A DNA stretch of 64,000 nucleotides from Squalus acanthias (Eukaryota). Location of the stretch: assembly GCA_030390025.1 (NCBI GenBank), contig CM059431.1, forward strand, positions 148,058,001-148,122,000, read 5' to 3'. A program made the position numbers and the translations under genes. Position 1 is the stretch's first letter; the number at the start of each line of letters is the position of its first letter. The notes under the pieces were generated by a model. It had not been told where the DNA came from, did not search any database, and was given only the letters and a program-made list of their open reading frames with translations. This document shows positions 341 through 60,449 of the stretch, piece by piece.

Positions 341-583
341 TGTGTGGGATGGTAATGGGGTCAGCCCTCGCCTTCTGACTCAGTGAGCGGTTCGACTCGC
401 TCCCACGCCCCTGTTTCCTAGACTTTGGACTTATTTAGGGGTTGTGAACGAAAATGCACGAGACAACAGGTTCTGCTGCAAGAATTTTGACTCTATTAAA
501 AGAAAAAGGTAACAAACTTAAAACACACTTAATACTTAAACACAGATTGGGGACCACACGGTACAGGCGAGGGCCAACAACAA

Positions 584-3500
584 CATAAGAACATAAGAAC
601 ATAAGAAATAGGAGCAGGAGTAGGCCAATCGGCCCCTCGAGCCTGCTCCGCCATTCAATAAGATCATGGCTGATCTGATCCTAACCGCCAATCTACTATC
701 TATCACAGAACCATCTCCTGCATCTAACAGAATTGCACACACGAAATATGAGCAGAATCAGGCTACACGGTCCCTGGGCACGCTCCACTACCCACAGGGC
801 CATGACCGATCCGAACCTAGACTCATGTCCAAATTCCTGCCCGCTCCCCGTAACCCTTAATGCCCTTTACTTCTAGGAAACTGTCTATTTCTGTTTTAAA
901 TTTATTTAATAATGTAGCTTCTACAGCTTTTTGTGGCAGCATATTCCATGGACTTACCACCCTCTGAGTGAAGTAGTTCCTCCTCATCTCAGTTTTGAAA
1001 GAGCAGCCCCTTATTCTAAGACTATGTCCCCTAGTTCTAGTCTCACCCGTCATCGGGAACATCCTCCCCGCATCCACCCGATCCAACCCCTTCACAATCT
1101 TATATGTTTCAATAAGATCGCCTCTCATTCTTCTGAACTCCAATGAGTAGAGTCCCAATCTACCCAACCTCTCCTCATATGACCACCCCCTCATCCCCGG
1201 GATAAACCGAGTGAACCTTTTTTGCACTGCCTCGAGAGCAAGGATGTCTTTCCTTAAGTAAGGACACCAAAACTGTATGCAGTATTCCAGGTGCGGTCTC
1301 ACCAATACCTTGTACAACTGAAGCAATACCTCCCTATTTTTATATTCTATCCCCTTAGCAATGAAAGGCAACATTCCATTTGCCTTCTTAATCACTTGCT
1401 GCACCTGCATACTAACCTTTTGAGTTTCGTGCACCAGGACCCCCAGATCCCTTTGCACTTCAGTACTCTCCAGTTTCTTGCCATTAAGATAATAAATTGC
1501 TCTAGGATTTTTCCTGCCAAAGTGCATCACCTCACACTTTCCAGTGTTGTGTTACATCTGCCAAATCTCTGCCCACTTACTTAGCCTGTCTATGTCCCCT
1601 TGCAGGTTTTTTATGTCCTCCTCACTCACTACTTTCCCTCCCATCTTTGTATCATCTGCAAATTTTGATATGTTACACTTGGTCCCTTCCTCCAAATCGT
1701 TAATATAGATTGTGAAGAGTTGGGGAGCCAGCACTGACCCATGTGGAACACCACTAGTTACTGATTGCCAGTCTGAGAATGAACCATTTATCCCAACTCT
1801 TTGCTTTCTGTTAGATAGCCAATCCTCTATCCATGCCAGAATATTACCCCCAATCCCGTGATTTTTTACCTTAAGCAATAATCTTTTGTGTGGCACCTTG
1901 TCAAATGCCTTTTGGAAGTCTAAATACACTACATCCACTGGTTCCCCTTTATCCACTCTATATGTTACTTCCTCAAAGAACTCCAGCAAATTTGTCAAAC
2001 ATGACTTCCCCTTCGTAAAACCATGCTGACTTTGTCCTATTAAATTATGATTATCCAAATGTCCTGTTACTGTTTCCTTAATAATGGACTCCAAAATTTT
2101 ACCTACCACAGATGTTAGGCTAACTGGTCTATAGTTACCAGCCTTCTGTCTACTGCCCTTTCTTTAATAAGGGTGTTACATTAGCAGTTTTCCAGTCTGC
2201 CGGGACCTTAGCGGAATCCAGGGAGTTTTGAAAAATTATTACCAATGCATCTACAATCCCTACCGCCACTTCCTTCAAGACTCTAGAATGTAAGCCATCA
2301 GGTCCAGGTGATTTATCCGCCTTGAGTCCCATTATTTTACTGAGTACCACTTCCTAGGTGATTTTGATCGTGTTTAGCTCCTCTCCCCCTATAGCCCCCT
2401 GTTTGTCCAGTGTTGGGATATTCTTAGTGTCCTCTACTGTAAAGACTGATACAAAATATTAATTCAGTGTTTTTGCCATCTCCATATTTCCCACCATTAA
2501 TTTCCCGGTCTCATCCTCTAAGGGACCAACATTTACTTTAGCCACCCTTTTTCATTTTATATAACTATAAAAACTCTTACTATCTGTTTTTATATTTTTT
2601 GCTAATTTACTTTCATAATCTATCTTCCCTTTCTTAATCAATCTTTTTGTTCTTTTTTGCTGCCTTTTAAAGTTTTCCCAATCCTCTGTCCTCCCACTAG
2701 ATTTCGCTACCTTATATGCCCTTGTTTTTAGTCGAATACTATCCTTAATTTCTTTACTTAGCCACGGATGACTGTCCCTTCTTTTACACCCTTTTCTTTT
2801 CAGTGGAATATATTTTTTTTGGAATTTGTAAAATAACTCCTTGAATGTACACCACTGATCATGTGTCGTCTTACCCTTTAATCTATTTTCCCAATCCACT
2901 CTACTCAATTCCGCTCGCATACCTTCATAGTCTCCTTTATTCAAGCTTAGCACGCTTGTTTGAGATCCAACCTTCTCACCCTCTAATTGAATATGGAATT
3001 CAACCATGTTATGGTCACTCATTCCAAGGGGATCCTTTACTAGGACATTTTTAATTAATCCTGTCTCGTTACACAGGACCAGATCTAAGGTTGCTTGCCC
3101 CCTGGTCGGTTCAGTTACATACTGCTCAAGAAACCCATCCCTAATACACTCAATGAACTCATCCTCATGGCAGCCCTGCCCCATTTGATTTGTCCAATTA
3201 ATATGATAGTTACAATCCACCATAATTATAGATGTTCCCTTATTACATGCCTCAACTATTTCCTGATTGATACTCCGTCCAACAGAGTTGCAACTGTTCG
3301 GAGGCCTATAGACTACGCCCACTAGTGTTTTTTTCCCCTTATTATTCCTTATCTCCACCCAAACTGTTTCATTATCATGATTTTTTGACCCAATATCATT
3401 ACTCTGTATTACAGTGATTCCTTCCTTTATCAACATAGCCACCCCACCTCCCCTTCCTTCCTGCCTGTCCTTCCTGATCGTTAAATAACCTGTTATGTTT

Positions 3501-5060
3501 AATTCCCAGGCATTGTCACCCTGCAGCCATGTTTCTGTAATGGCCACAATATCATAACCATATGTAGTTATTTGTGCCATTAACTCGTCTATTTTGTTAC
3601 GAATGCTACGTGCATTCAGATAGAGAACTTTCAAATATGCTTTGTGGCACTTAGTTCCTGCTTTTTCACTTTTTACCACTTTACCTTTTACTCCACACAC
3701 TCTGTCCCTTCCTGCCACGCTCTGATTTGTGATTCCCCTACTGCTACCTATGTCTATGACCCTCTCTGTTATCATTTTTATTTTTTGCTCTCTTGAAACC
3801 TCCCCCCCACTAATTAGTTTAAAGCCCTCTCCACAGCCCTAGTTATTCGATTCGCCAGGACACTAGTCCCAGCACTGGCCAAGTGAAGTCCGTCCCAACG
3901 GAACAGCTCTCTCCTGCCCCAGTACTCGTGCCAGTGTCCCAAGAAGCAAAACCCATTTTTCCCACACCAGTCTTTGAGCCACGCATTCAACTCCCTGATT
4001 TTATTTACCCTAGCCAAATTTGCTCGTGGCTCAGGTAGTAATCCAGAGATTATTACCCTCGAGGTTCTGCTTTTTAATTTGGCCCCTAGCTGCTCAAACT
4101 CCCTCAGCAGAACCTCTTTGCTTGTCCTATCTATGACATTGGTACCAACATGGACCACGACAACTGGATCCTCCCCCTCCCACTCCAAGTTTCTCTCCAG
4201 CCCAGAGGAGATGTCCTTAACCCTGGCACCGGGCAGGCAACACAGCCTTCGGGATGCTCGCTCTTGGCTGCAATTAACCCTATCTATCCCCCTAATGATA
4301 CTATCCCCTACCACTACAACATTTCTTTTTACTCCTCCCACTTGAATGGCCCCCCTTACCACGGTGCTGTGGCCAGGTTGCTCATCCTCCCTGCAGTCCC
4401 CGCTCCTATCCACACAGGGAGTAAGAGCCTCGAACCTGTTGAACAAGAGCAAGGGCTGCGGCTCCTCCAACACTACCTCCTGGATCCCTGTACCTGCCTC
4501 ACTCGTAGTCACACCTTCCTGTCCCTGACCACGGGCTACTTCTGAATTAGTTACTCTAATTGGTGTGACTACCTCCTGAAACACGGAGTCCAGGTAACTC
4601 TCCCCCTCCCTGATGTGTCGCAGTGTTTGAAGCTCGGACTCCAGCTCATCAACACGGAACCGGAGTTCCTCGAGCAGCCAACACTTACTGCAAATGTGTT
4701 CACCGTGAACATCAATGGTGTCCACCAGCTCCCACATATTGCAGCAGTAACACATCACCTGCTCTCCCATTCTATGTAATTAATTAAAAATTTATTATTT
4801 ACCCTTCAGTTAATTTATGCCAGCAGTCTCCGCTACACCACAGATACCCGAGAAACTATAAACTATTGAATTGAAGTTTTGTATAAAAAAAAGAGAAATA
4901 CTCACCAACCAATCACTTACCTGCTTTCTGGTGACGTCACACTTCGATTATTTTTTACCTCTCCACTGCTCTCGGCTTGGTGAAAGCCTACCTGGTCGCT
5001 GCCGCCCTTTACCGCCGCCGCCTCGCCGCTGTTGCTCCACCCAGGTCCGCCGCCAAATAT
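584..5060 (-). mobile_element. Full-length CR1 LINE (5' UTR, intact ORF1, disrupted ORF2, (TTCTTATG)n tail)
   Basis: ORF1 is at 4770-3814. ORF2 is in pieces from 3775 to 823, with APE (YLNARS, ITETW), RT ([17 protein letters not shown]) and a CR1 C-terminus. An octamer tail lies at ~584-607. Confidence 0.95.
3814..4770 (-). CDS. CR1 ORF1p (CxxC zinc finger, leucine zipper, SGNH esterase-like domain), 318 aa
   Basis: CYCCNMW...CSKC, LRFRVDELESELQTL, VVGDS, HVGTN and DGLHL motifs; the frame is uninterrupted. Confidence 0.9.
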   Translation of the reverse strand: MGEQVMCYCCNMWELVDTIDVHGEHICSKCWLLEELRFRVDELESELQTLRHIREGESYLDSVFQEVVTPIRVTNSEVARGQGQEGVTTSEAGTGIQEVVLEEPQPLLLFNRFEALTPCVDRSGDCREDEQPGHSTVVRGAIQVGGVKRNVVVVGDSIIRGIDRVNCSQERASRRLCCLPGARVKDISSGLERNLEWEGEDPVVVVHVGTNVIDRTSKEVLLREFEQLGAKLKSRTSRVIISGLLPEPRANLARVNKIRELNAWLKDWCGKNGFCFLGHWHEYWGRRELFRWDGLHLASAGTSVLANRITRAVERALN

Positions 5061-6199
5061 ACCAAACAGAAATCTTATCCCTCCCAAAGATCCCACTATC
5101 TAGCTAGGTTTTTGGTTTCAGGAGATCCGGGATAATGCTCACCAACGATTCCTTGACAGGATTTTAGAGTCTTTTGATTGAAAGATTTCGTAAGGCCCTT
5201 GTTGCTGCGAGGTGTCCGATGATCACTGAGGCAGTCGCTCTGGTTTCTTCTTGTTTGATGGTCTGTTTGCTGGCCTTCCTCCTCGTGGCTTGCAGTGGTT
5301 TTGCTGGAGCAGGGAGAGAGCTGTGCCAGCGTTGTCAGCGAGTCCAAAAGAGAAAGAGTCTTGGGACAGGCTTCTATTATATTGTCTTTTTCCCGCCCAA
5401 AACCCCTTCTAAAACGGTTTCGTTTAGATTGCAAATGAGCCCTGTCAAGTCCATTGTCTAGTTTTGGGGGGCTTGCCAGTTCCGATGGCTTTAAGCTCAG
5501 TGTTAAACATGTCCTGATCGTTTTCCGATTTAACACAGCCTTATCTACGCGCCAAATCTCAACCCTATTGTCCTAGGTCTATTGGTGGGCCTTTAAATCT
5601 GTCCTGTGGATACCTGGTTGATTGGTTTTTGCTGCAGCCCTAAATGTTTTATTGATTTCAAAAGAGGTCTTGGATTATTCATTTCGATGTGTTGTGAGGC
5701 TTTGGGGTTTTGTCTTTTCCTCCTTGATAGGAAGGCAGTGCAAATACACTGCAGACAGCTTACTACACTGCCTGGCCACGCCCCTCTGCAGCCTGTGTGT
5801 CTTTGAAAGGTGTCTTTCCCAACAGTAAGATTCGAAAAGTCATTTTCCTCAGGGTTTTCTTCTTGTGATCTTTAAAAATGTCCAGAATTAAGGGTTTTAC
5901 TCAAATCACTTCACTTAGGATTCTGTTCGAGTTTCTCGGGGATTTTGCGAAGCCTATATCCCCCACTTTGATACTAAAGCTGAATTAGTGTAATTAACAG
6001 GTGACCAAAATTTCTGATCCCCGAAAACCAACCTTCCCCTGTATTACCTAAACTAAAAACCCAAACATACATTCCCCTTTTAAAAGTGATGTTTCAGGTA
6101 CATACAGGTAAGAATCAATCTTTATTTCACATCCAAGCACGGAGAGGGTCCGACACCCCTGCACAGCTTGGAAAACACATCATACACATCATAAAAATG

Positions 6200-7648
6200 A
6201 CACAACACACATAATTTTTTTTTTATTAAAGTACAAATTTCAAGGTTCGTTCCATCCCTGGCCATAGCCTTCATTTTGATGCTCTTCCCAACTCCCTTCA
6301 TGTCTGGAACGGAGCTCCCGGTCCCTTCCCCTGCACTTTGTACCCAGCAGGTAGAGAACTATCCCGAGCTGGCAGACCACCAAAAGATGGGAAGCCATCC
6401 TGATCCATCAAGGCAATTCTATATTCTCGAAAATATCCCACCAGGGTGGAACTATTTTATCCAAAATCTCTGCCCCAATTTCAACTGTTTTCTGTTCCAG
6501 GGTGTAGAAATGTTTTTGTGAAATCTCGACAGCTTTAAGTAGGATGGTAAGATGTTCGAGTAGAGGGGGAATTTTATATCCAAAGTAAATCACATACTTT
6601 TGCAGGTTGGTGATGTTTTCTGTTACAGTGAGGTGAACAGTGGAGGGTCAGGAATGGGGACAATCCGTTCTTGGGCCAATTAAACTTCTGCCTCTGGTTT
6701 AAAGCAGAAACTTCTGTCACTAACCGGACACCAGAAGTGTCCATGCTGGTAGTGGGACGCACCTGTGGTGACACAATATATCCCACCCCCGATATATGCT
6801 ACCTGTGAGGAAACATGGCCATGTGCCATCACCTCCATCGTACAGTTTATAGGTCGTGTGCAAGCAGCTTTGAAACCGCACTGTGGTTTGGAATAGGCGT
6901 TCAAGTGCTGGGGACACTGTATTATGTGTGAACCCCGGCTCTGGCACCCGGAGAGGTCAATACCTGTCATGGCGTGCTCCCACTTTATGACATAAGGTGG
7001 GACCGCTTTAAAACGGATGTGTGCACCCCCTTGAATGACTCCAATGTTCTCCACACTGTATACCGGTACGGGTCGGGCTGTCCCACTCATGACCGGCATT
7101 CTCACTACTATCCCCATGATAGTGTGATTGGAACGCCCACAATCTATTGGGATAGTGTAGGCTTCAGAGGCTAGACGAAAGTGGCATGGGCTCAGCGAAT
7201 TACTAAACGGGTGAAGGGCTGCGAGGTGCTTGTTGCTGATCCAGGAGGAGACTAAACCTTGCTTTAAATCCTCCAGGTTGCTACGGCCCTAGCCCAACAA
7301 TCATGCCCCGTACAGCACACACACCTCATTCTGTGCAGCCTGATCCGATGCATTCCTATCGTCCCGTATGAGTGCATTTACTGTTTTGGCATGCCTTTCC
7401 AATTCTGCAATAATTTCCTTTAAATGAACCGTCATAGCTTGGTCCTCATGTAGCTCTGAGACTACCACTGTGTTCCCATCCTTCAGGATCTTTCTTAACT
7501 GGGTTTTTAAACCATTTATCTGTGTCTGTAATTCCATGTCATCCAGGCTATTTATTACAGAGGACCCTGTACTATAGGCAGTGGAAACATAATTCCAGGC
7601 ACCCCTTCTTTGTCTACCCGTGCCCATAGGGTTCTCAGGGTTTATTAT
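6200..7648 (-). pseudogene. Decayed viral envelope gene (env-A), class I fusion protein resembling paramyxovirus F
   Basis: Furin site RQRR (7615-7604), then a fusion-peptide-like GAWNYVSTAYSTGSSVINSL, a heptad helix, a Cys-rich domain (VPPYV...IDLSGC...CPQ...C...C), a second helix and a TM-like segment (WIRMASHLLVVCQLGIVLYLLG). It carries several stops and a frameshift. Confidence 0.75.
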
Positions 7649-7711
7649 TTTACAGGAACAGAGCAACGCCACCCTGTTAGGAATGGTATAGTATTAACCC
7701 ATTCTGCCCGA
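7649..7711 (+). pseudogene. Continuation of env-B copy 1 (LQEQSNATLLGMV*Y*PILP)
   Basis: Matches the reverse complement of ~43192-43255, including the same junction into a CR1 fragment. Confidence 0.65.
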
Positions 7712-8395
7712 TACTGATGATATAAAACTAGGTGAGACAGTAATCTGTGAGGAGAACATTAAGAGTCTGTAAAGGGATATAGATAGACAAAGTGGGTGTG
7801 CAGTAAGTTGGCAGATGGAGTATAATGTAGGGAAATGTGAGGTTATTCACTTTGGTAGGAAGAATAGAAAAACAGAATTTATTTTAAATGGTGAGAAACT
7901 TTCAAATGTTGGTGTTCAGAGAGATTTGGGTTTCCTCGTGCAAGAAACACAGAAATCCAGCATGCAGGTACAGCAAGCAATAAGGAAGGCAAATGACATG
8001 TTGTCCTTTATTGCAAGGGGGTTGCAGTATCAGTGTAAGGAAGTCTTGCTACAATTGTACAGGGCCTTGGTGAGACCACACCTGGAGTACTGTGCACAGT
8101 TCTGGTCTCCTTATCTAAGGAAGAATATACTTGCCTTGGAGGCGGTACAACGAAGGTTCACTAGATTGATTCCTGGGATGAGAGGGCTGTCCTATGATGA
8201 GAGATTGTGTAGAATGTGCCCATACTTTCTGGAGTTTAGAAGAATGAGAGGTGATCTCATTGAAACATACAAGATTCTGAAGGGAATTGACAGGTTAAAT
8301 GCTGAGAGGTTGTTTCCCCTGGCTGGAGTGTCTAGAACGAGGGGGCATATCTCCGGATATGGGGTAGGCCATTTAAGACTGAGATGAGGAGGAAT
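7712..8395 (+). mobile_element. 5'-truncated CR1 ORF2 3' fragment
   Basis: DD.KLG...MEYNVGKCEVIHFG...RPHLEYC. Paralogous to 42270-43190. Confidence 0.9.
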
Positions 8396-11534: not shown

Positions 11535-14500
11535 AATATAAGTACATAAGAAATAGGAGCAGGAATAGGCCACTTGGCCCCTCGAGCCTGCTCCGACATT
11601 CAATAAGAGCATGGCTGATCTAGGGCTCAAAGCCACTTCCCAGCCCGCTCACCATAACTCTTCACTCCCTTATCTTGCAAAATAGTTTCTATCTCCACTT
11701 TATATGCGTTTAATGACCCAGCCTCCACAGCTCTCTGGGGCAGAGAATTCCACAGATTTACGACCCTCTGAGAGAAGAAGTTCCTCCTCATCTCAGTTCT
11801 AAAAGTGCGACCCTTTATTCTGAGACTGTGCCCCCGAATTCTAGATTTTCCCATGAGGGGAAACATCCTCTCTGAATCTACCCTGTCGAGCCCCCTCAGA
11901 ATCTCAACTGTTTCGATAAGATAACCTCTCATTCCTCTAAATTCCAATGAGTATAGGCCCAGCCTGCTCAACCTTTCCTCATAATTCAAACCCCTCATCC
12001 ATGGAATTAACCTAATGAATCGTCCCTGAACTGCCTCCAATGCAACTATATCCCTCCTTAAATAAGGAGACCAAAACTGTACGCAGTTCTCAAGATGTGG
12101 TCTCACCAATACCATGTACAGTTGTAGCAGGACTTCCCTGCTTGTATACACCAACCCCCTTGAAATAAAGGCCAACATTCATTTTGATTACTTGCTGTAC
12201 CTGCAAACTAACTTTTTGTGGTAAATGCACAAGGAGCCCCAAGTCTTTCTTAACTGTAGCATTTTGTAATCTCCTCTCCTTTAAAATAATAGTTTGCTTT
12301 TTTATTTTTCCTGCCAAAGTGGATAACCTCGCACTTTCCCACCTTAAACTCCATCTGCCAAATGTTTGCCCACTCACCTAGCCTGTTTAAATCAATTTGC
12401 AGATTCTTTGAGTCCTCTGCACAACTTGCTTTCCCACCCAGCTTTGTATCATCTGCAAATTTGGCTACATTACTCTCGATCCCTTCATCAAAGTCATTAA
12501 TGTAGATGTAAATAGTTGGGGCCGCAGCACCCATCCTTTTGGCACCCCATTAGTTCCCGTTTGCCAAACAGAAAATGACCCATTTATCCCCACTCTCTGC
12601 TTTCTGTTTGTTAGCCAATTCTCTATCCATGCTAATATATTACCCCCAACTCCGTGTCCTCTTATCTTATGCAGTAATCTTTTATATGACACCTTATCGA
12701 ATGCCTTCTCGAGATCCAAATACACCACATCCACTGGCTCATCCTTGTCCACCCTGCTTGTTGCATCCTCAAAGAACTCCAGCAAATTTGTTAAACTTGA
12801 TTTACTTTTCCTAAAACCATGCTGACTCTGTTTGACTGCACTATGTTTTGCTAATTGCCCTGCTACTGCTTCCTTATTGAAGGACTCCAGCATTTTCCCA
12901 TCGACAGATGTTAGGCTAACTGATCTATAGTTTCCTGCTTTCTGTCTCCCTCCTTTCTTAAATAGGGGTGTTACATTAGCGGTTTTCCAATCCGCTGGGA
13001 CCTCTCCAGAGTCCAAGGACTTTTGGTATATTCCAACCAATGCATCCAGTATCTCTGCAACCACTTATTTTTAAGACCGTGGGATGCAGGCCATCTGGTC
13101 CAGGGGACTTGTCGTCTTTTAGTCCCATTATTTTACTGAGTGGGATAGTGATTTTCTTCAGTTTCCCACTCGCTGTGGCCCCTTGATTATCCATTATTGG
13201 GAGGTTGTTGGTGTATTCTACAGTGAAGACAGATACAAAATATTTGTTCAGAGTCTCTGCCATTTCACCGTTCCCCATTATTAATTCCCCAGTCTCATCC
13301 TCTAAGGGACCAACATTTACTTTAGCTACTCTCTTCCTTTTTATATACCTGTAGAAGCTCTTACTAACCGGTTAAATGATTCTTGCCAGCTTACTCTCAT
13401 AATTCATCTTGTATTTCTTTATTATATTTGATGTCATCCTTTGCTGGTTTTTAAAAATGTCCCAATCCTCTGGTCTCCCACCAATCTTGGCAACATTGTA
13501 TGCTTTCATTTTCAATTTGATCCCATCCTTTACTTCCTTAGTTAGCCACTGATGGTGGTCCCTTCTGTTAAAATCTTTCTTTCTCCCTGGAATATATTTT
13601 TCTTGAGAGTTATGAAATATCTCCTTAAATGTCCGCCACTGCACAACAACTTTCTTACCCTGTAAATAGTTTTTCTAGTCTACTTTAGCCAGTTCTGCCC
13701 TCATGCCATTATAATTGCCTTTGTTTAAGATCAGGACATTGGTTTGGGATACAACTTTCTCACCCTCCAACTGAATTTGAGATTCAACCATGCTGTGATC
13801 ACTCTTTCCTAGATGATCGTCTACTATGAGAGCATTTATAAATTCTCTCTCATTACATAGTACCAGATCTAAGATAGCCTGCTCCCTGGTTGGTTCCATT
13901 ATATACTGTTCTAGGAAAACATCCCGGATGCACTCTATTAACTCCTCCTCCAGGCTACCATGGCCAATTTGATGTGTCCAATCAATATGGAGATTAAAAT
14001 CACCCATGATTATTTCCGTACCACTTTTTTACAGGCCTCCATTATTTGTTGATTGATACTCTATCCAACAACATTGCTACTGTTCGGGGGCCTGTAGACT
14101 ACGCCCCCCGCCACCGCCAGAGACTTTTTCCCCTTATTATTTTTTACCTATACCCAAACCGATTCTGCATCTTGATCTTCTGAGCCAATAGCACTTCTCA
14201 CCACTGCACTGATCCCATCTTTTACAAACAAAACCACCCCACCTCCCTTTCCTTTCTTTCTATGTTTCCGAATTATCATATACCCTGGAATATTCAGTTC
14301 CCAGCCCTGGTGGCCTTGCAACCACGTCAATGTAATGGTGATCAGATCATACCCATTTGTATGTATTTGTGCCGTCAACTCATTTATCTTGTTACGAATG
14401 CTGCGTGCACACAGATATAGAGCTTTCAACTTTGTCTTTTTAACAGTTTTCCTTGTTCTGGCCTTTTTTTCTGTTACACTCTTATTTTTAATCAGTCAGT

Positions 14501-14895
14501 CCCTTCCTGTCATACTCTGGTTATTAATTCACCCGTCTCCAGCCTGCTCTATTGCTTTCTCATTTCTCATTTATGTTAATTTTCCTGCTCATCTAGATCC
14601 CCCCCCCTCCCCCACAAATCGAAACCCATTTCTCCCACACCAGTCTTTGAGCCACTCGTTCATTTGTCTGATCTTATTTACCCGATGCAAATTCGCTCGT
14701 GGCTCAGGTAGTAATCCAGAGTTTATTACCTTTGTGGTTCTGCTTTTTAATTTAACCCCTCGCTGGTCATACACTCTCAGCTGAACCTCTTTCTTTGTCC
14801 AACCTATGTCATTGGTACCTCCGTGGACCATGACAACTGGATCTTCCCCTTCCCACTCCAAGTTTCTCTCCAACCCAGTGGAGATGTCATAAACT
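11535..14895 (-). mobile_element. Degenerate CR1 LINE (partial ORF1 plus ORF2)
   Basis: ORF1 esterase fragment at 14873-14589, APE and RT fragments from 14429 to 11627, and a CR1 3' UTR. Confidence 0.92.
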
Positions 14896-14897
14896 TG

Positions 14898-15110
14898 GTT
14901 ATGATGTTTTATGAATGGTCATAATGATTTATAAAGGGTTATGATGTTTTATGAATGATCATAATGGTTTATAAAGGGTTGTAATGATTTATTAGTGGTC
15001 ATTATGAGTTAGAAAGGTTTAAAATGTTTTCTTGATGGTCTTAATGATTTACAAAGGTTATGATGTTTAGTTAATAGCCATAATGATTCATAAAGGATTA
15101 TGATGTTTTG
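14898..15110. repeat. ~40-bp AT-rich tandem repeat
   Basis: atgatgttttatgaatggtcataatgatttataaagggtt, about 5 copies. A related unit at ~10575 suggests the array was split by the LINE insertions. Confidence 0.75.
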
Positions 15111-15535: not shown

Positions 15536-16749
15536 GAGCCCAGTGGAGACAGTGTGTGAGTGAGCGTGTTAATGTCCCCAGATCACTGGCGGCTCACTCA
15601 AAATATCAGGCCCAGGGAACTCTCAGGCTGCAAAGTCTCCGCTTCTTCTCATCCTTTAATGAATTTTACAATCAGATTAAAGGGATATATCCCCACATTC
15701 TTCAACTGCTCTCTGAACTTAGTCTGGGTCACGGCATAAATCCCAGTGTTTGTGCAGCAACTCAGCAGCTGCAGCATCAGTGCTATTTTCTGTACATAAA
15801 GAGGTAGAGATACAGAATGATACTCCGAATACCACAACCGGTTCTAGATATAAATCACCATAAACATTGCCCATAACAGGATGAAATTGCCGGAGATAAC
15901 AAGCAGTAAAATGATGGATTTCCTGCGGCTCTCCATCTCTGGGTCTCTGGGACTCTCCCCACTGCTGGGACCCCGGAGTCTCCTGCGGGCTCTGCTGGCC
16001 ACTAAAATGTGTCTGACGGTGACAGCATTGAGCAGCAGAATCACAAAAAATGGGACGCCCGGGGTGAGAAGATAATGAACGAGCTCGATTGCACCCCAGA
16101 CCCGTGAAATCATCACAGTGTATGTTACCTCACAAAACCACGGGGTGTTCTGAAGCCGATACCGATCTTTCAACGAAAAATACCAAAAGATATTCTTTAA
16201 ACAGCTCAGTACAGTCACTTTTCCCAGAACCACAGCCGCCGTTTTCTCGTTGCAATATTTAGTTTTCAGCTTCTGGAGACAAATGGCCACAAATCGATCA
16301 AAGGTGAAAGTGACGGTGAACCAGACAGAACAGTCTGTGGCTGCATAAAGCAGGACCGCGTGGATATTACACACGCGGATGGAACGCAGGAAAATAAACT
16401 GTCTCCAATAAGCAATCGGAATCTGCCTCAATATCAGGTCGAAGACAACGATCAGTAGATCCGCCGCTGCCATGGCCACCAGGTAGGGAGTGACACATTT
16501 GGATAGACCGCACTTTCCGCGAGACAGGATCACAATCGTCACTAAGTTCACTGTGAGGAAGGGAAATAAACACGGAAATTATACATCAGGCTGGGAGCAA
16601 GAGCAGCAGATTGAAGGAATTCGGGGAGAAATATGCGAATCAATAGCGACATTAAATGATACAATCTAATTCTATTACCCGTGGAGCTGAATACAGGGTT
16701 TATTGTAAGAATAATCGGGAATAAATTGTTGAATCAATAAATGAATTGT

Positions 16750-19700
16750 TGATACATGCAACAGGATTCTGAGAGGGTTGTGGATAACACATTTAGTGAG
16801 TTGGTCACACCGCAGGTTAAGGCCAGCGTAGATAGTACATGGGTGACCAAAAGGCAGAGCAAGGGCAGGAAGGTAGTGCAGAAATCCCCTGGGGTTGTCT
16901 CCCTTAGCAACAGGTTCACCGCCTTAGGTGCTGTTGTCGGGGGGGATGACTCATCGGGGGAAGGCACCAGCAGCCAGGCTCATGGCACCATGACTGGCTC
17001 GGTTGCAAAGAAGGGAGGGAAAAAGAGTGGCAGGGCTATAGTAATAGGGGATTCGATTGTAAGGGGAATAGATAGGGGTTTCTGTGGTCGCGACCGAGAC
17101 TCCAGGATGGTATGTTGCCTCCCTGGTGCAAGGGTCAAGGATGTCTCGGCGCGGGTGCAGAACATTCTGGAGGGGGAGGGGGAACAGCCAGTTGTCGTGA
17201 TACATGTTGGTACCAACGACGTAGCTAAAAAAGGGGAAGAGGTCCTACAAGTAGAATTTAGGGAGTTAGGAGCCAAGCTAAAAAGTAGGACCTCGAAGGT
17301 AGTAATCTCTGGATTACTACCAGTGCCACGTGCTAGTAAGAGTACAGAGAACAGGATAGTTAGGCTAAATACGTGGCTTGAGCAGTGGTGTAAGAGGGAG
17401 GGTTTTAAATTTTTGAGGCATTGGAACCAGTTTTGTGGTAGGTGTGACCTATACAAAAGGGACGGTCTACACCTGTGCAAAGATGGAACTGATGTTCTCG
17501 GGGTAATTTTTGATAAAGCAGTTCGGGAGCATTTAAACTAGTATGGCAGGGGGCTAGAAACCTATGTAGTGAAATAGAGGAAAGTGAAAGGCAGACAGAA
17601 ATAAATGGTAAAAGGGTGAGGAACAAAAAACAAAGGGCCAAACTAATTCATAAAAAATGTGAGCATAAAAAAAGCCTGAGGGTTTTATACCTTAATGCGA
17701 GAAGCATCAGGAACAAGGTAGATGAATTAGCTGTGGAAATAGAGGTTAATAATTATGATCTAATTGGGATTACGGAAACATGGTTGCAGGGTGAGCAGGG
17801 CTGGGAGCTTAACATACAGGGGTATTCAGTACTTAGGAAGGATCGACAAAAAAGAAAGGGAGGAGGGGTAGCATTGCTGGTAAAAGAAGGGATAAATGCA
17901 ATTGAAAGGAAGGATATTAACTCAGTTAATACAGAATCTATATGGGTGGAGCTAAGAAATAGCGAGGGGCGAAAAACATTAATAGGAGTGGTATATAGGC
18001 CTCCAAATAGTAAAATAGAGGTTGGGGAGGGCATCACGAGGGAAATTAGAGAAGCGTGCAATAAGAGCACAGCTGTCATCATAGGTGACTTTAACTTACA
18101 TATAGATTGGAATAGCCTAATCAGTAAAAATAATGAGGAGGAGGAATTCCTTGAGTGTTTAAGGGATGGTTATCTGGATCAATATGTCGAGGAACCAACT
18201 CGGGAACAGGCTATATTGGACTGGGTACTGTGCAATGAGAAGGGACTAATTAGTAATCTTGTTGTACGGGGACCCTTGGGTCAGAGCGATCATAACATGA
18301 TCGATTTCTCACTCGAAATGGAGAGCGAAGAAATTGACTCAGATACTAAGGTCCTGAATTTAAACAAGGGGAATTATGATGCCATTAGACGGGAACTGAG
18401 TAGGTCTGATTGGACAACGTTCCTGGGAGGACTGGAGGTAGATAAACAATGGCAAGCATTTAAAGATAGAATGACAAAATTGCAAAAATTGTTTATACCA
18501 ATCTGGCATAAAAGGAAATCTAAAAAGGTGACTCAACCGTGGATAACAGGGGAAATTAGAGACAGCATAAAATCCAAAGATAGGGCGTATAAAATAGCCA
18601 AAAAAAGCGCCAGAGCGGAAGATTGGGAACAGTTTAAGATAGAGCAAAGGAGGACAAAGGGCTTAATCAAGAGGGGCAAAATAGCTTACGAAAGCAAGCT
18701 GGCGGAAAATATAAAAACTAACTCCAAAAGCTTTTATAAGTATATCAAGAGGAAAAGACTGGTGAAAACCAAAGTTGGCCCATTGCAGTCAGATACGGGG
18801 GAATATATAACGGGAAATAAGGAAATGGCAGACCAACTAAATGCATACTTTGGGTCAGTCTTTACGAAGGAAGACACAAAAAACCTCCCTGGGATATCGG
18901 GAAAAATAGGGACATTTGCAAAGGAGGAACTGACGCAAGTCAATATCTCTAAGGATATGGTGTTAAGGAAGCTAAAGGGATTGAAGGCGGACAAATCCCC
19001 AGGGCCTGATAACATGCATCCTAGGGTGCTGAAGGAGGTGGCCCTAGAGATAGCGGATGCACTAAGTATGATTTTTCAGAATTCATTAGACTCGGGAACA
19101 GTGCCCATGGATTGGAGGGTAGCTAACGTTACCCCACTATTCAAAAAGGGGGGTAGGGAAAAAGCAGGTAATTACAGACCTGTAAGCCTTACATCAGTTG
19201 TGGGCAAAATGCTGGAGTCCATCATTAAGGATGAAATAGCGGAGCACTTAGCAAATGGGGACAGGATAGGACAGAGTCAACATGGATTTACAAAGGGTAA
19301 ATCGTGCTTGACTAATCTATTGGAATTTTTTGAGGGAGTAACTGGTAAAATAGATGGGGGAGAGCCAGTAGATGTGGTGTACCTGGACTTCCAAAAGGCC
19401 TTCGATAAGGTCCCACATAAAAGATTAGCAGGGAAAATTGAAGCTCATGGGATAAAGGGGAAAGTATTGACGTGGATAGAGAACTGGCTGTCAGATAGAA
19501 AACAGAGAGTTGGAATAAACGGCTCATTTTCTGAATGGCAGGCAGTAACAAGTGGGGTACCACAGGGATCTGTCCTGGGTCCCCAGCTGTTCACAATTTA
19601 CATTAATGACCTGGATCAGGGAGTCGGATGCAGCATTTCCAAATTTGCAGACGACACTAAACTAGGAGGGGGGGGTGGGCTCAGAGGAGGAGACCAGGAA

Positions 19701-20583
19701 GCTCCAGAGCGATTTGGACAGACTGGGTGATTGGGCGGATAAATGGCAGATGCACTATAATGTGGACAAGTGCGAAGTTATCCACCTTGGGTGCAGGAAC
19801 GGGAGGGCAAATTATTATTTAAATGGCAATAAATTGGGAGAGGGGGAAGTACAGAGAGACCTGGGTGTTCTTGTACACCAGTCACTGAAGGCGAGCATGC
19901 AGGTGCAACAGGCGGTCAAGAAGGCAAACGGTATGCTGGCCTTCATAGCAAAAGGGTTGGAATACAGGAACAGGGATACCTTGCTGCAGCTGTACAGGGC
20001 ACTGGTGAGACCACACCTCGAGTACTGTGTACAGTTTTGGTCGCCTCATCTGAGGAAAGATGTTCTTGCCATGGAGGGGGTGCAGCGGCGATTCACCAGG
20101 CTGATACCAGGAATGGCGGGATTGACCTATGAGGAGAGACTATGTAGTTTAGGGATGTACACACTGGAGTTTAGAAGATTGAGAGGGGACCTCATAGAAG
20201 TGTATAAAATTCTGACAGGTCTAGACAGACTAGATGCAGAAGGAATGTTTCCCTTGGCGGGTGAGAACAGAACTAGAGGACATAATTTAAGGATAAGGGC
20301 TAAACCATTCAGGACAGAAATGAGGTGGAATTTCTTCACTCAGAGGGTGGTGAACCTATGGAACTCATTGCCACAGAGGGCAGTGTACGCCAGCTCATTA
20401 AATATATTTAAGAGGGAATTAGATATATTTCTACAGGCAAAAGGGGTTAAGGGTTACGGAGAGAAGGCGGGGACGGGATACTGAATTGGAGGATCAGCCA
20501 TGATCTCATTAAATGGCGGAGCAGGCTCGAAGGGCCGGATGGCCGACTCCTGCTCCTATCTTCTATGTATCTATGTATCTATG
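16750..20583 (+). mobile_element. Young CR1 LINE in the GPCR intron (5'-truncated ORF1, near-intact ORF2)
   Basis: ORF1 is at 16756-17541. ORF2 (17616-20484) is broken only by one extra G in a G8 run at ~19668-19675. Tail is (CTATGTAT)n. Confidence 0.95.
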
Positions 20584-55900: not shown

Positions 55901-57250
55901 TCTTAGACCTATTAGAATTAGTATTTACTGTGGCCATGTTTGATTTAAACCGTTGTTTTCTCTGACTGCCACTTTTGTTTTTCTCCTTCCTATCTTTTGC
56001 TTTTAGCCTTGTTTCCCTTTCCTCTGTTTCCCTGCTAAGGTTCCCAACACCCTGCCATTTTAGTTTAAACCCTCCCCCAGAGCTCTAGCAAACACTCCCC
56101 CAAGGACATCGGTCCCGGCCCTGCCCAGGTGTAGACCATGCGGTTTGTACTGGCCCCACCTGCCCCAGAACCGGTTCCAATGCCCCAGGAATTTGAATCC
56201 CTCCCCCTTGCACCCTTCCTCTAGCCACGTATTCATTTGAAATATCCTTCTATTTCTACTCTGACTAGCACGTGGCACTGGTAGCAATCCTGAGATTACT
56301 ACCTTTGAGCTCCTATTTTTTAATTTACCTCCTAACTCCCTATATTCTGCTTTTAGGACCTCATCCCGTTTTCTACCTTTTTCGTTGATACCTATATGCA
56401 GCACGACAACTGGCTGTTCACCCTCCCCTTCCAAAATGCTCTGTAGCCGCTCTGAGACATCCTTGACCCTTGCATCAGGGAGGCAACATGCCATCCTGAA
56501 ATCTCGTTTGCGGCCGCAGAAACGCCTATCTATTCCGCTTACAATAGAATCCCCTATCACTATAGCTCTCCCATTCTTTTTCCTCCCATACTGTGCAGCA
56601 GAACCAGCTACGGTGCTAGGAAGTTGGCTGCTGCTGTCTTCCCCTGATAAGCCATCTCCCTCAACAATATCCAAAGCGGTATATCTGTGTGAGATGGGGA
56701 TGGCCACGGGGGACCCCTGCACTACGTGCCTGCGCCTATTACTCTGCCTGGTGGTCACCCATTCCCTTCCTGCCTGTACACCCTTTACCTGCGGTGTGAC
56801 CAACTCCCTAATCGTGCTATCCACGATGTCCTCAGCATCGCGATGCTCCAGTATTCATCCATCCACAGCTCCAGTGCCACAATGCGGTCTGTCAGTAGCT
56901 GCAGCTGGATACACCTCCTGCACACATGGGTTCAGGGACACAGGAAGTGTCCTTGATTTCCCACATAGTGCAGGAAGAGCCTGTCACAGCGCCGAGCTGT
57001 CCTGGCATGACTTACCCTTTAATTAATTAATTAATCAATTAATTAAAATTAAATTTAAATTAAATGGATCCCATCAATTACACTGGAATTAAGTGATATA
57101 CTCAAGGGCCCTTGCTTAACAGTATTTCCCGCTACACAAAGAGACCGCAGAAACCACAAAATTAAAGTTTACAAAAATTGAGAAAGAAAACACTCACCAA
57201 ACGATCACTTACCTGCTTTTTGGTGACGTCACACTACGAATACTTTTTAC
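52981..57250 (-). mobile_element. Near full-length degenerate CR1 LINE
   Basis: (TTCTATGA)n tail, ORF2 fragments from 55937 to 53079, ORF1 at ~57008-56060, and a 5' UTR motif shared with the CR1 at 4901-4945. Confidence 0.93.
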
Positions 57251-60130
57251 TCTAGTGTAAGTGCAGGTACCACTAGCAACAGAGGAGCTCGGTCACCTCT
57301 TGTGTAAGTGTAGGTACCACTAGTAACAGAGGAGCACGGTCATCTATAGTGTAAGTGTAGGTACCACTAGTGACAGAGAAGCACGGTCACCTGTAGTGTA
57401 AGAGTAGGTACCACTAGTAACAGAGGAGCACGGTCACCTCTAGTTTCCGTGTCGATAACACTAGTAACAGAAGAGCACGTACACCTCTAGTGTTAGTGTA
57501 GGTAGCACTAGTGACAGAGAAGCACGCTCACCTCTAGTGTAAGTGTAGGTAACACTAGTAACAGAGTTGCAGGGTCATCTCTAGTGTAAATGTAGGTAAC
57601 ACTAGTAACAGAGGAGCACGGTCACCTCTAGTGTAAGTGTAGGTACCACTAGTAAAAGAGGAGCACGCTCACCTCTAGTGTATGTGTAAGTAATACTAGT
57701 ACAGGAGGAGCACGGGCACCTCTAGTGTAAGTGTATGTAACACTAGTACAGGAGGAACACAGTCACCTCTAGTGTAAGTCTATGTAACTCTAGTACAGGA
57801 AGAGCACGGTCACCTCTAGTGTCAGTGTATGTAACACTAGTACAGGAAGAACACAGTCACCTCTAGTGTAAGTGTCTGTAAAACTACTACAGGAGGAGCA
57901 AGGTCCCCTCTAGTGTAAGTGTATGTAAAACTAGTACAGGAGGAGCACAGTCACCTCTAGTGTAAGTGTCTGTAAAACTACCACAGGAGGAGCAAGGTCC
58001 CCTCTAGTGTAAGTGTATGTAACAATAGTACAGCAGGAAAAGGGTCACCTCTAGGGTAAGTATATTTAACATTATTACAGGAGGAGCAGGGTCACCTCTA
58101 GTGTAAGTGCATGTAAAACAAGTACAGGAGGAGCACAGTCACCTCTGGTGTACGTGTAAGTAACTCTGGTACAGGAGAAGCCAGGTCACCTCTAGTGTAA
58201 GTGTATGTAACACTAGTACAGGAAGAGCACGGTCACCTCTAGTGTCAGTGTATGTAACACTAGTACAGGAGGAGCACGGTCACCTCTGGTGTAAGTGTAT
58301 GTAACTCTGTTACAGGAGGAGCATGGTAACCTTTAGTGTAAGTGTATGTAACACTAGTACAGGAAAACCACGGTCACCATGAGTGTAAGTGTATGTAACT
58401 CCGGTACAGGAGAAGCACGGTCACCTCTGCTGTAAGTGTATGTAACACTAGTCCAGGAGAAGCACGGCCACCTCTAGTGTAAGTGTATGTAACACTAGTT
58501 TAGGAGGAGCACGGTCACCTCTGGTGTAAGTGTATGTAACTCTGTTACAGGAGGAGCATGGTAACCTTTAGTGTAAGTGTATCTAACACTAGCACAGGAG
58601 GAGCACTGTCACCTCTATTGTAAATGTATGTAACACTAGTACAGGAGGAGCACGATCACCTCTAGTGTCAGTGTATGTAACACTAGTACAGGAAGAGCAC
58701 GATTAACTCTAGTGTAAGTGTATGTAGCACTTGTACAGGAGGAGCTCGGTCACGTCTAGTGTAAGTGTAGGTAACTCTAGTACCGGAGGAGCACGGTCAC
58801 CTCTAGTGTAAGTGTATGTAACTCTAGTACAGGAGAAGCACGGTCACCTCTAGTGTAAGTGCAGGTAACACTAGTAGAGGAGGAGCACGGTCTCCTCTAG
58901 TGTAAGTGCAGGTAACACTAGTACAGGAGGAGCACGGTCACCTCGAGTGTATGTGCAGGTAACACTAGTACAGGAGGAGCACGGTCACCTCGAGTGTAAG
59001 TGCAGGTAACACTAGTAGAGGAGGAGCACGGTCTCCTCTAGTTTAAGTGCAGGTAACACTAGTACAGGAGGAGCACGGTCACCTCGAGTGTAAGTGTAGG
59101 TAACACTAGTACAGCAGGAAAAGGGTCACCTCTAGTGTCAGTGTATGTAACTCTAGTACAGCAGGAAAAGGGTCACCTCTAGTGTAAGTGTATTTAACCC
59201 TGGTACAGGCGGAGCACGGTCACCTCTGGTGTAAGTGTATGTAACACTAGTACAGGAAGAGCACGGTGCCCTCCAGTGTAAGTGTATGTAACTCTGTTAC
59301 AGGAGGAACACGGTCACCTCTAGTGCAAGTGTATGTAAGTCTATTACAGGAGGAGCATGCTAACCTCTCGTGTAAGTGTAGGAAACACTAGTACAGAAGG
59401 AGCACGGTCACCTCTAGAGTCAGTGTATGTAATAATAGTACAGGAGGGGCACGGTCACCTCTAGTGTCAGTGTATGTAAAACTAGTACAGGAAGAACTAG
59501 GTCAACTCTGGTATAAGTGTATGTAACACTAGTATAGGAGGAGCACGGTCACCTGTAGTGTAAGGGTATGTAACACTATTACAGAAGGAGCACTGTAACC
59601 TCTAGTGTAAGTGTATGTAACACTAGTAGAGGAGGAGCACGGTCACCACTAGATTAATTGTATGTAACACTAGTACAGGAGGAGCACGGTCACTTCTAGT
59701 GTCAGAGTATGTAACACTAGTGCAGGAGGAGCACGATCACCTCTAGTGTAAGTGTATGTAACACTAGTACAGGAGGAGCACGATCACCTCTAGTGTAAGT
59801 GTATGTAACACTAGTACAGGAGGAGCACGATCACCTCTATTGTAAGTGTATGTAACACTAGTACAGGAGGAGCACGATCACCTCTAGTGTAAGTGTATGT
59901 AACACTAGTACAGGAGGAGCACGATCACCTCTATTGTAAGTGTATGTAACACTACTGGAGGAAGAGCACGGTCACCTCTAGAGTAAGTGAAGGTCACTCT
60001 AGTACAGGAAGAGCACGGTCACCTCTAGTGCAAGTGTATTTAACACTAGTACACGAGGGGCACGATCACCTCTAGTGTTAGTGTATGTAACTCTAGTACA
60101 GGAGGAGCACGGACACCTCTTGTGTAAGTT
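57250..60130. repeat. 47-bp satellite (CACGGTCACCTCTAGTGTAAGTGTATGTAACACTAGTACAGGAGGAG)
   Basis: About 60 head-to-tail copies with an internal inverted repeat CTAGTGT...ACACTAG. Confidence 0.95.
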
Positions 60131-60449
60131 TACTGGAAAAGTACTCTCTTATCTAGCATAAATGTAGCGTTACCACTAGAACGGAGAATACGGTCGCCTG
60201 TAATGCAACCGGACTAGTGTAATCACAAATATTGCAAGATTGGTTTCACTGTCTGGAGTATTTGTTGCACTTGAATTGAGGGAAGTGAAGGGTCCTGAGG
60301 TTGGCCCTCTTCACCAATTATAGGAATAGGGTCAGCACCAGTACTGGGAAATTTCACTTTCCACTTGTAAACAATGTTTTAATCTTGTTTTTGACACTGA
60401 CCAGTAACAATGTCAACGTGTTCTTTTTATGTGACGTGTCAGATACAAA

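Follow-up and report, generated by a model that had tools for sequence, protein, structure and literature searches.

A broken 3' fragment in Squalus acanthias belongs to an endogenous retrovirus family with a predicted paramyxovirus-F-type envelope

We analysed a 64,000-nucleotide stretch of the Squalus acanthias genome (GenBank assembly GCA_030390025.1, contig CM059431.1, positions 148,058,001 to 148,122,000 of the forward strand; "the window"), in which positions 7646 to 341 of the minus strand hold the dead 3' remnant of one member of a multi-copy endogenous retrovirus (ERV) family. The fragment and the long interspersed nuclear elements (LINEs) that adjoin or interrupt it comprise the following features:

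7648..8394, plus strand: 3' fragment of a CR1-like LINE adjoining the 5' break of env
6240..7646, minus strand: the last 60% of env, beginning some 15 codons upstream of the furin site and running to the natural stop codon
7604..7615, minus strand: RQRR furin-type cleavage site, the sole RxK/RR site in the unbroken copy
7259..7603, minus strand: segment following the cleavage site (putative fusion peptide of weak hydrophobicity) and the long helices of the first heptad region (model helices 111-222 projected onto the window; hydropathy)
6660..7162, minus strand: cysteine-rich beta domains of the predicted model, alignable with paramyxovirus F1
6459..6563, minus strand: second heptad helix (model mapped to the window)
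6345..6407, minus strand: transmembrane segment (comparison with the unbroken copy)
5959..5969, minus strand: polypurine tract immediately before the 3' long terminal repeat (LTR); the same tract precedes the 3' LTR in full-length copies
5056..5958, minus strand: 3' LTR, first part, 82-89% identical to the 5' and 3' LTRs of full-length copies
588..5055, minus strand: CR1-like LINE inside the LTR, not retroviral, about 4.5 kb, with a GDSL-esterase ORF1 and an endonuclease-reverse transcriptase ORF2
341..587, minus strand: 3' LTR, last part, ending ...CACA, with 88-89% identity to the LTR ends of copy L005/L006

Read on the minus strand from 7648, the frame gives ...GRQRR and directly GAWNYVSTAYSTGSSVINSLD..., then MGIVVRMPVMSG...VYSVENIG...VPPYVIKWEHAMTGIDLSGCQ...CPQ...GGIYC. 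These peptides, together with the heptad helix, second helix, transmembrane segment and purine tract listed in an initial annotation made from the letters alone, are present as described there; its range (5959..7648) takes in env and the purine tract and misses the LTR, which runs from 5958 to 5056 and, beyond the CR1-like insertion, from 587 to 341. The gene is broken by in-frame stops at 7303, 7291 and 6682 and, judged against an unbroken natural copy, by a one-base loss near 6648, which shifts the second helix and transmembrane segment into the next frame, where a further stop lies at 6410 (natural end, 6242). Identity to that unbroken env (L027) is 95% at the DNA level over 1405 nt. We found no gag, pol or 5' env elsewhere in the window. 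Since the same truncation and the same flanks occur at 3 other loci (98% over 10 kb; 89% over 3-5 kb), the remnant has been duplicated together with host DNA.

Comparing the 202-residue open piece of env with the 3.7-Gb genome, we found that all 150 scored matches were 87-100% identical (at least 150 close copies are present; the 7558 first-look candidates are not a copy number), and this, with the 95% identity to the unbroken env, shows that the window feature is not a chance resemblance. All 150 scored matches to a reverse transcriptase (RT) piece were 91-100% identical. Full-length copies carry LTRs, gag, pol and env, such that the annotated LTR element stands; their order is LTR-gag-pol (protease, RT, tether, RNase H, integrase)-env-LTR, and complete copies measure 11.6-12.9 kb. 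The LTRs (0.8-1.8 kb) have ends TGTA..TACA; of 8 elements for which the ends could be located, 7 have a 4-bp target duplication. Gag carries a CCHC knuckle and Pol a dual RNase H (tether plus true RNase H), and gag and pol share one frame across TGA-CTG in the three copies checked, UGA-CUR being a leaky stop. In 20 of 30 elements at least 16 of the 18 primer-site bases match the 3' end of host tRNA-Arg(TCG), and in 7 the match is exact. Divergence between paired LTRs (Kimura two-parameter; 17 pairs among 30 elements) had a median of 0.023 and a range of 0.004-0.198, the median corresponding to about 5 million years if a mammalian rate is applied and to 53 with the shark rate that PMC4422223 assumes. 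On the host side, tRNA-Arg(TCG) forms long tandem arrays with a 1623-bp period at G000:C26:39.0-42.2 Mb (tRNA-Ser also lies in the unit checked), and genome-wide matches number 422 for tRNA-Arg(TCG) versus 2 for the tRNA-Arg(ACG) pattern, such that the family primes on an amplified isoacceptor.

Many copies have lost pol and kept env. Among 10 copies chosen for long env frames, 3 were complete and 7 lacked most of pol; 39 further env-chosen loci comprised 22 with gag and no RT, 10 with full pol, 2 with partial pol and 5 with neither within 9 kb. Conversely, 20 loci chosen by RT kept at least 90% of env in 12 cases, part of it in 5 and almost none in 3. The pol deletions fall into two classes with common breakpoints within each, and amplification therefore came after pol loss. 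A second subfamily (L001/L002, L009/L010, L019/L020) differs in its LTR (0.8-0.9 kb), leader, signal peptide and tail while its Env core is nearly identical; pol was absent from all of its sampled members but one (L132).

The unbroken Env of about 784 residues consists of a signal peptide, some 200 N-terminal residues, the RQRR site at 327, two heptad regions, one transmembrane segment and a short tail of about 35 residues. As the initial annotation had noted for the remnant, neither CX6CC nor an immunosuppressive-domain (ISD)-type QNR motif occurs in the unbroken copy, which likewise gave no TLV_coat match. The N-terminal residues likely form an immunoglobulin (Ig) domain, judging by weak Pfam matches to Ig_3 (E 0.003-0.1) and by ESM atlas neighbours that are Ig proteins (scores <0.9); a single-sequence model of the N-terminal 205 residues failed, at a mean pLDDT (per-residue model confidence) of 33.5. 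The closest named relatives of the element lie in skate and shark genomes, which points to an elasmobranch host and agrees with the cartilaginous fish suggested by the initial annotation. For Env, the 10 of 47 matches that were looked up fell in Rhinoraja, Pristiophorus, Mustelus, Chiloscyllium, Heterodontus and Scyliorhinus and, more distantly, in the frogs Pelodytes, Mantella and Xenopus, and one frog Pol relative runs into an Ig-Env N-terminus that is 48% identical to a frog-type Env relative. Alongside these, Mantella aurantiaca holds a 16-member cluster of Env relatives (P0085-P0098, most of 677 residues), a young frog family with the same Env type, and three shark gene models (P0002, P0003, P0073) join Env pieces to host genes (zinc finger, Niban, fbxo15), as annotation artefacts or exonisation.

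A structural model points to a paramyxovirus-F-type Env core. Built for residues 223-784 of a natural copy from a 33-sequence alignment (mean pLDDT 69.6; predicted TM-score, pTM, 0.50), the model returned in a PDB structure search human parainfluenza virus 3, Newcastle disease virus, respiratory syncytial virus and henipavirus F in all listed rows. The best Foldseek match (E 3e-11, TM-scores 0.40/0.51) bears out the F-like envelope of the initial annotation, with paramyxovirus and pneumovirus F as the proteins recovered, and a second structure comparison gave Z 13.2 with an rmsd of 7.5 over 376 aligned residues. The top ESM atlas cluster was PF00523 (0.93), with Baculo_F and Gypsy clusters also among the matches. 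Foamy Env chains were absent among the PDB rows listed, which is no evidence of a difference. Among predicted viral structures (BFVD), the model matched mononegaviral, baculoviral and chuviral glycoproteins as well as the envelope polyproteins of two walleye epsilonretroviruses, WEHV-1 (E 1e-8) and WDSV (E 2e-6; Q9WHI8, A4GTG3). The epsilonretroviral surface subunit could not be modelled in 10.1101/2021.11.05.467493. We thus describe the Env core as a predicted class Ib fusogen with the nested three-domain core of F; class Ib also takes in foamy Env and spike S2, and its members are trimers that fuse membranes once primed by cleavage. As a separate observation from the same search, the putative glycoprotein of a fish filovirus (A0A2P1GML9) matched the F-type model at E 3e-12. 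Filovirus GP is usually class Ia.

To compare Envs across retroviruses, we aligned a profile of the family Env with individual Envs, for which shuffled controls gave E 0.03-0.93. The best single match was a loki-type Env (E 7e-13 to 3e-14, 98% probability). The Env of snakehead retrovirus (SnRV) aligned colinearly over 328-344 columns (hhalign 75-78%, E ~2e-5, or 1.8e-5; its shuffles, E 0.23-0.25), and six foamy Envs ranged from E 5e-7 to 0.036. Nine gamma-type, beta and delta Envs gave E 0.007-0.57 over at most 50 columns. Compared directly, loki and SnRV Envs gave only E 0.52, and pairwise BLASTP of the family Env against SnRV Env only E 0.015 (19% identity over 420 columns). Because the profile links loki, foamy and snakehead Envs and not those of the gamma, beta and delta types, it favours an ancestral F-type Env.

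For RT placement, loki-type references were three contigs (L045-L047) found by an RT motif matching the supplement of PMC7947760, whose Envs hit PF00523 as published there; these near-complete lokiretrovirus-type elements sit in a metagenome collection and are probably host-fish DNA. The SnRV reference (L041) measures 10,688 nt as in PMC12193657, and its RT matches the SnRV row in the PMC7947760 supplement. Other references were 47 retroviral contigs, with gypsy-type proteins labelled by domain content; the SnRV clade had a single reference and the foamy references were mammalian-type only. Trees were built from 32 rows (LG+G4) and 24 rows (C20 mixture) out of 89 RT rows. Family RT was 43-51% identical to frog and coelacanth proteins, 43% to SnRV (the best match among named viruses) and 31-35% to loki (35%), foamy and gamma RTs. 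Lokiretroviruses came out sister to a clade of all other retroviruses, the family included (support 100/98 under LG+G4, 98/97 under C20), and a clade of family plus loki was rejected under both models (approximately unbiased test, p 0.016 and 0.022). RT split from gypsy at 100/100, a foamy clade (100/100) excluded the family, and the best PDB sequence matches for Pol were gammaretroviral and foamy RT-RNase H. The family motif is LPQGFHNSP and not the loki CPFGYxNSPAEFN (PFGY occurs 92 times in the loki supplement); the loki motif had 0 exact matches in the whole genome and 0 matches in the viral contig collection. Monophyly with the frog and coelacanth proteins had moderate support (SH-like branch test, SH-aLRT, 86) in a quick 56-row tree run as a side check and was left open by the 32- and 24-row trees. 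Judged by RT, the family belongs to the canonical retroviruses, branching at the base of their tree, and is neither a lokiretrovirus nor, against mammalian-type references, a foamy virus. Its affinity is probably SnRV-like, and a clade joining its wider lineage to SnRV was not rejected (p 0.35, LG+G4).

Taken together, we consider it quite probable that the window holds a dead 3' fragment of a family whose RT falls with those of canonical retroviruses, likely within or next to the SnRV ("Huo") branch, and that the family's Env is of a predicted F type, likely with an N-terminal Ig domain. Several observations weigh against this reading. The RT trees leave the family in a basal polytomy and do not join it to SnRV, for which there was one reference, and a wider clade of the lineage plus loki, although rejected under LG+G4 (p 0.005), was not rejected under C20 (p 0.123). 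Foldseek TM-scores and pTM are modest, and sequence searches gave no F match for the family Env: Pfam returned no PF00523 match for the window piece, 3 unbroken Envs and 25 Env relatives (one relative matched Baculo_F weakly, E 0.001), and PDB sequence searches with one Env and with the 33-sequence profile returned nothing below E 0.1. The 20 residues that follow RQRR show hardly any hydrophobic character (mean hydropathy 0.25, versus 1.96 in loki and -0.52 in SnRV), and the fusion peptide is therefore only putative. The Ig domain rests on the weak scores given above, copies were sampled by similarity and not at random, and both the Env profile score (7e-13 versus 1.8e-5) and the TGA-CTG context are nearer to loki (TGA-CTA) than to SnRV (TAG-G).

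The initial annotation had proposed a lokiretrovirus-like identity, which would extend a lineage found in five vertebrate classes, cartilaginous fish not among them (PMC7947760), and loki Env being the best profile match, the dual RNase H and in-frame TGA-CTR junction found in both, and the survival of the wider clade under C20 all speak for it. It fails on the RT evidence and on protein architecture: the family Gag has a CCHC knuckle where loki-type Gag has no Pfam match, and Pol measures 1282 residues versus 1745 in loki. Furthermore, six chondrichthyan genomes lack a loki mark in the PMC7947760 supplement, although a relative of the family Env is encoded in one of these six (Chiloscyllium punctatum). 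We regard a lokiretrovirus as very improbable, and the annotation's fallback, an otherwise F-enveloped element, as the part that was right; its use of an F-like Env as a loki mark did not hold, as foamy Env has one too (PMC11468914) and SnRV Env aligns colinearly. A recombinant, in which a canonical-retrovirus pol was joined to an env captured from a lokiretrovirus or mononegavirus such that the F-type Env would not be ancestral in the branch, draws on the same closeness of the profile to loki over SnRV Env and on the frequency of env swaps in anamniote retroviruses (10.1101/2021.11.23.469661, PMC12690878). Several captures would be needed, however, because matches extend to the Envs of SnRV and foamy viruses and, by predicted structure, to those of WEHV-1 and WDSV; in sharks, skates and frogs alike, the Ig-F Env accompanies one and the same Pol lineage, and identity to mononegaviral F is just 9-15%. 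We consider recombination unlikely, if the most serious of the alternatives.

A cartilaginous-fish foamy-like ERV would account for an Env profile that matches foamy Env, itself of F fold (PMC11468914), and for the long LTRs, and spuma-type shark ERVs have been reported (PMC10699275). Yet the foamy RT clade, built from mammalian-type references only, leaves the family outside, and the in-frame gag-pol, CCHC knuckle, tRNA-Arg primer and 784-residue Env with an ordinary signal peptide do not fit, foamy Env frames being about 990-1030 residues. Foamy viruses have a spliced pol, a Gag without a Cys-His box and a tRNA-Lys primer. We give this reading little credence. Least plausible by far is that the stretch is either an errantivirus-like Ty3/gypsy element with an env or a free insertion of paramyxovirus F. 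In its favour, F-type env occurs widely among invertebrate gypsy elements (10.1101/2023.10.26.564294) and the atlas matches include Baculo_F and Gypsy clusters; against it stand the tether plus true RNase H, the gammaretroviral and foamy PDB matches, the full RT separation from gypsy and the position of env within LTR-gag-pol copies.

We also assessed selection on env. Variants shared by at least 2 copies had omega 0.16-0.26 and singletons 0.54-0.81; in 16 RT-chosen copies, which are free of env ascertainment, omega was 0.24 (Ig region, 0.26), and in the two pol-less classes 0.18 and 0.19. The low omega of shared, replication-era variants indicates that purifying selection acted on env during the family's spread and so points to reinfection by way of particles, and the values in the pol-less classes are consistent with Pol supplied in trans, although their shared variants may in part have been inherited from complete ancestors by recombination. 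Under the mechanism we propose, Gag-Pol would be made by stop read-through, and the 784-residue Env would be cut at RQRR and refold like F into a six-helix bundle. The Ig-like domain would serve as a receptor-binding module replacing a separate H/HN/G protein; F is described as a scaffold that accepts N-terminal or inserted binding modules in PMC11468914. The family would have spread via Env-requiring particles, given the scarcity of amino-acid changes among env variants that were shared and hence replicated, with pol-less gag+env derivatives likely copied by the Pol of complete elements. The window copy lost its 5' part, received a LINE into its LTR and was then duplicated with its host flanks.

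Four scenarios for the origin of env are laid out in PMC7947760, independent gains in loki and canonical retroviruses are preferred by PMC9040795, and PMC11468914 places orthoretroviral Env in class Ia and foamy Env alone in class Ib. We tentatively suggest, as a proposal close to evenly balanced between holding and failing, that lokiretroviruses and all Retroviridae descend from a common ancestor with an F-type Env, which persisted in loki, foamy viruses, SnRV, the walleye epsilonretroviruses and the shark-skate-frog-coelacanth lineage and was later replaced by gamma/beta class Ia Envs; the Env of this lineage would then be a sequence bridge with a captured Ig as its attachment module. The independent-gain model is weakened by a numerous family of canonical retroviruses that carries an F-type Env and whose Env profile picks up those of loki, foamy viruses and SnRV; given such a family, a single Env tree can test where retroviral env came from. 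Screens that start from gamma or beta transmembrane subunits would overlook elements of this sort, and the many copies that lost pol and kept env contrast with the common pattern, in which it is the ERVs without env that spread most. In the portions of the literature available to us we met neither the family and its Ig-F Env nor any report of an F-like Env in SnRV or the walleye viruses, and some of this ground may already be covered by Calcraft et al. 2024 (foamy cryoEM) and by Wang, Chen and Cui 2023 (cartilaginous-fish foamy ERV).

Beyond the remnant, much of the window consists of CR1-like LINEs (588-5055, 11600-14900, 16750-20500 and others), some with a GDSL/SGNH esterase ORF1. A rhodopsin-family G-protein-coupled receptor (GPCR) frame lies at 15844-16578 on the minus strand (7tm_1, E 8e-17), and recurrence of the segment around it at other loci suggests a duplicated GPCR cluster. 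A tandem array at about 57100-60200 has a 47-bp period and about 60 copies.

Among the known systems close to the family are SnRV and its clade Huo; with SnRV it shares the RT pattern LDISNGFWSI / QYTW..LPQGFH.SP.IFHQ / QYVDD, a tRNA-Arg primer, an in-frame gag-pol stop, a CCHC Gag, a colinear F-type Env core and a weakly hydrophobic segment after RQRR, unlike loki. The two differ in primer (Arg(TCG) in the family, Arg(ACG) at 18/18 in SnRV), in the gag-pol stop (TGA-CTG versus TAG-G) and in Env, which in SnRV reaches about 1130 residues as opposed to 784 with a short tail. The SnRV clade is further marked by complex splicing, accessory ORFs and a long Env tail. SnRV-related shark ERVs are known, namely elephant-shark CmiERV lineage I (PMC4422223) and clade Huo (PMC6001957); the available text of these two papers does not describe their Env as F-like, and short-word searches of the CmiERV supplement gave no primer-site match. 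The nearest Pol outside elasmobranchs belongs to frog and coelacanth ERV proteins annotated as "NYNRIN-like" or "uncharacterized" (P0005, P0006, P0008, P0009, P0011), and the nearest Env there (P0056, P0078, P0069; 20-23%) has an Ig-like N-terminus as in the family.

Lokiretroviruses as described in PMC7947760 share the LTR-gag-pol-env order, an F-like Env with RXKR, coiled coil and transmembrane segment, and the TGA-CTR junction; dual RNase H is common to all retroviruses and not diagnostic. An integrase related to CGIN1 and an RNase H that groups with foamy viruses are further marks of lokiretroviruses. The family departs from them in an RT outside the loki clade and without its motif, in the CCHC Gag, in the extra N-terminal Ig-like domain and in lacking their hydrophobic peptide after the cleavage site. 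With foamy viruses (PMC11468914) it shares an F-type Env core, detectable Env sequence similarity and long LTRs, and differs in RT clade, gag-pol arrangement, primer and Env size, the extra Env module being N-terminal in the family and inserted in foamy Env. The marks of gamma-type (class Ia) Env, namely ISD, CX6CC and TLV_coat, are all missing. Paramyxovirus and pneumovirus F (PF00523) share the predicted order of F2-like strand and helix, furin site, first heptad region, cysteine-rich beta domains, second heptad region and transmembrane segment, from which the family Env differs by its low identity, its lack of a Pfam match, about 200 extra N-terminal residues and a weakly hydrophobic post-cleavage peptide. 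The F-enveloped retrovirus is a kind already known from the loki and foamy types, and the family would work like one of them.

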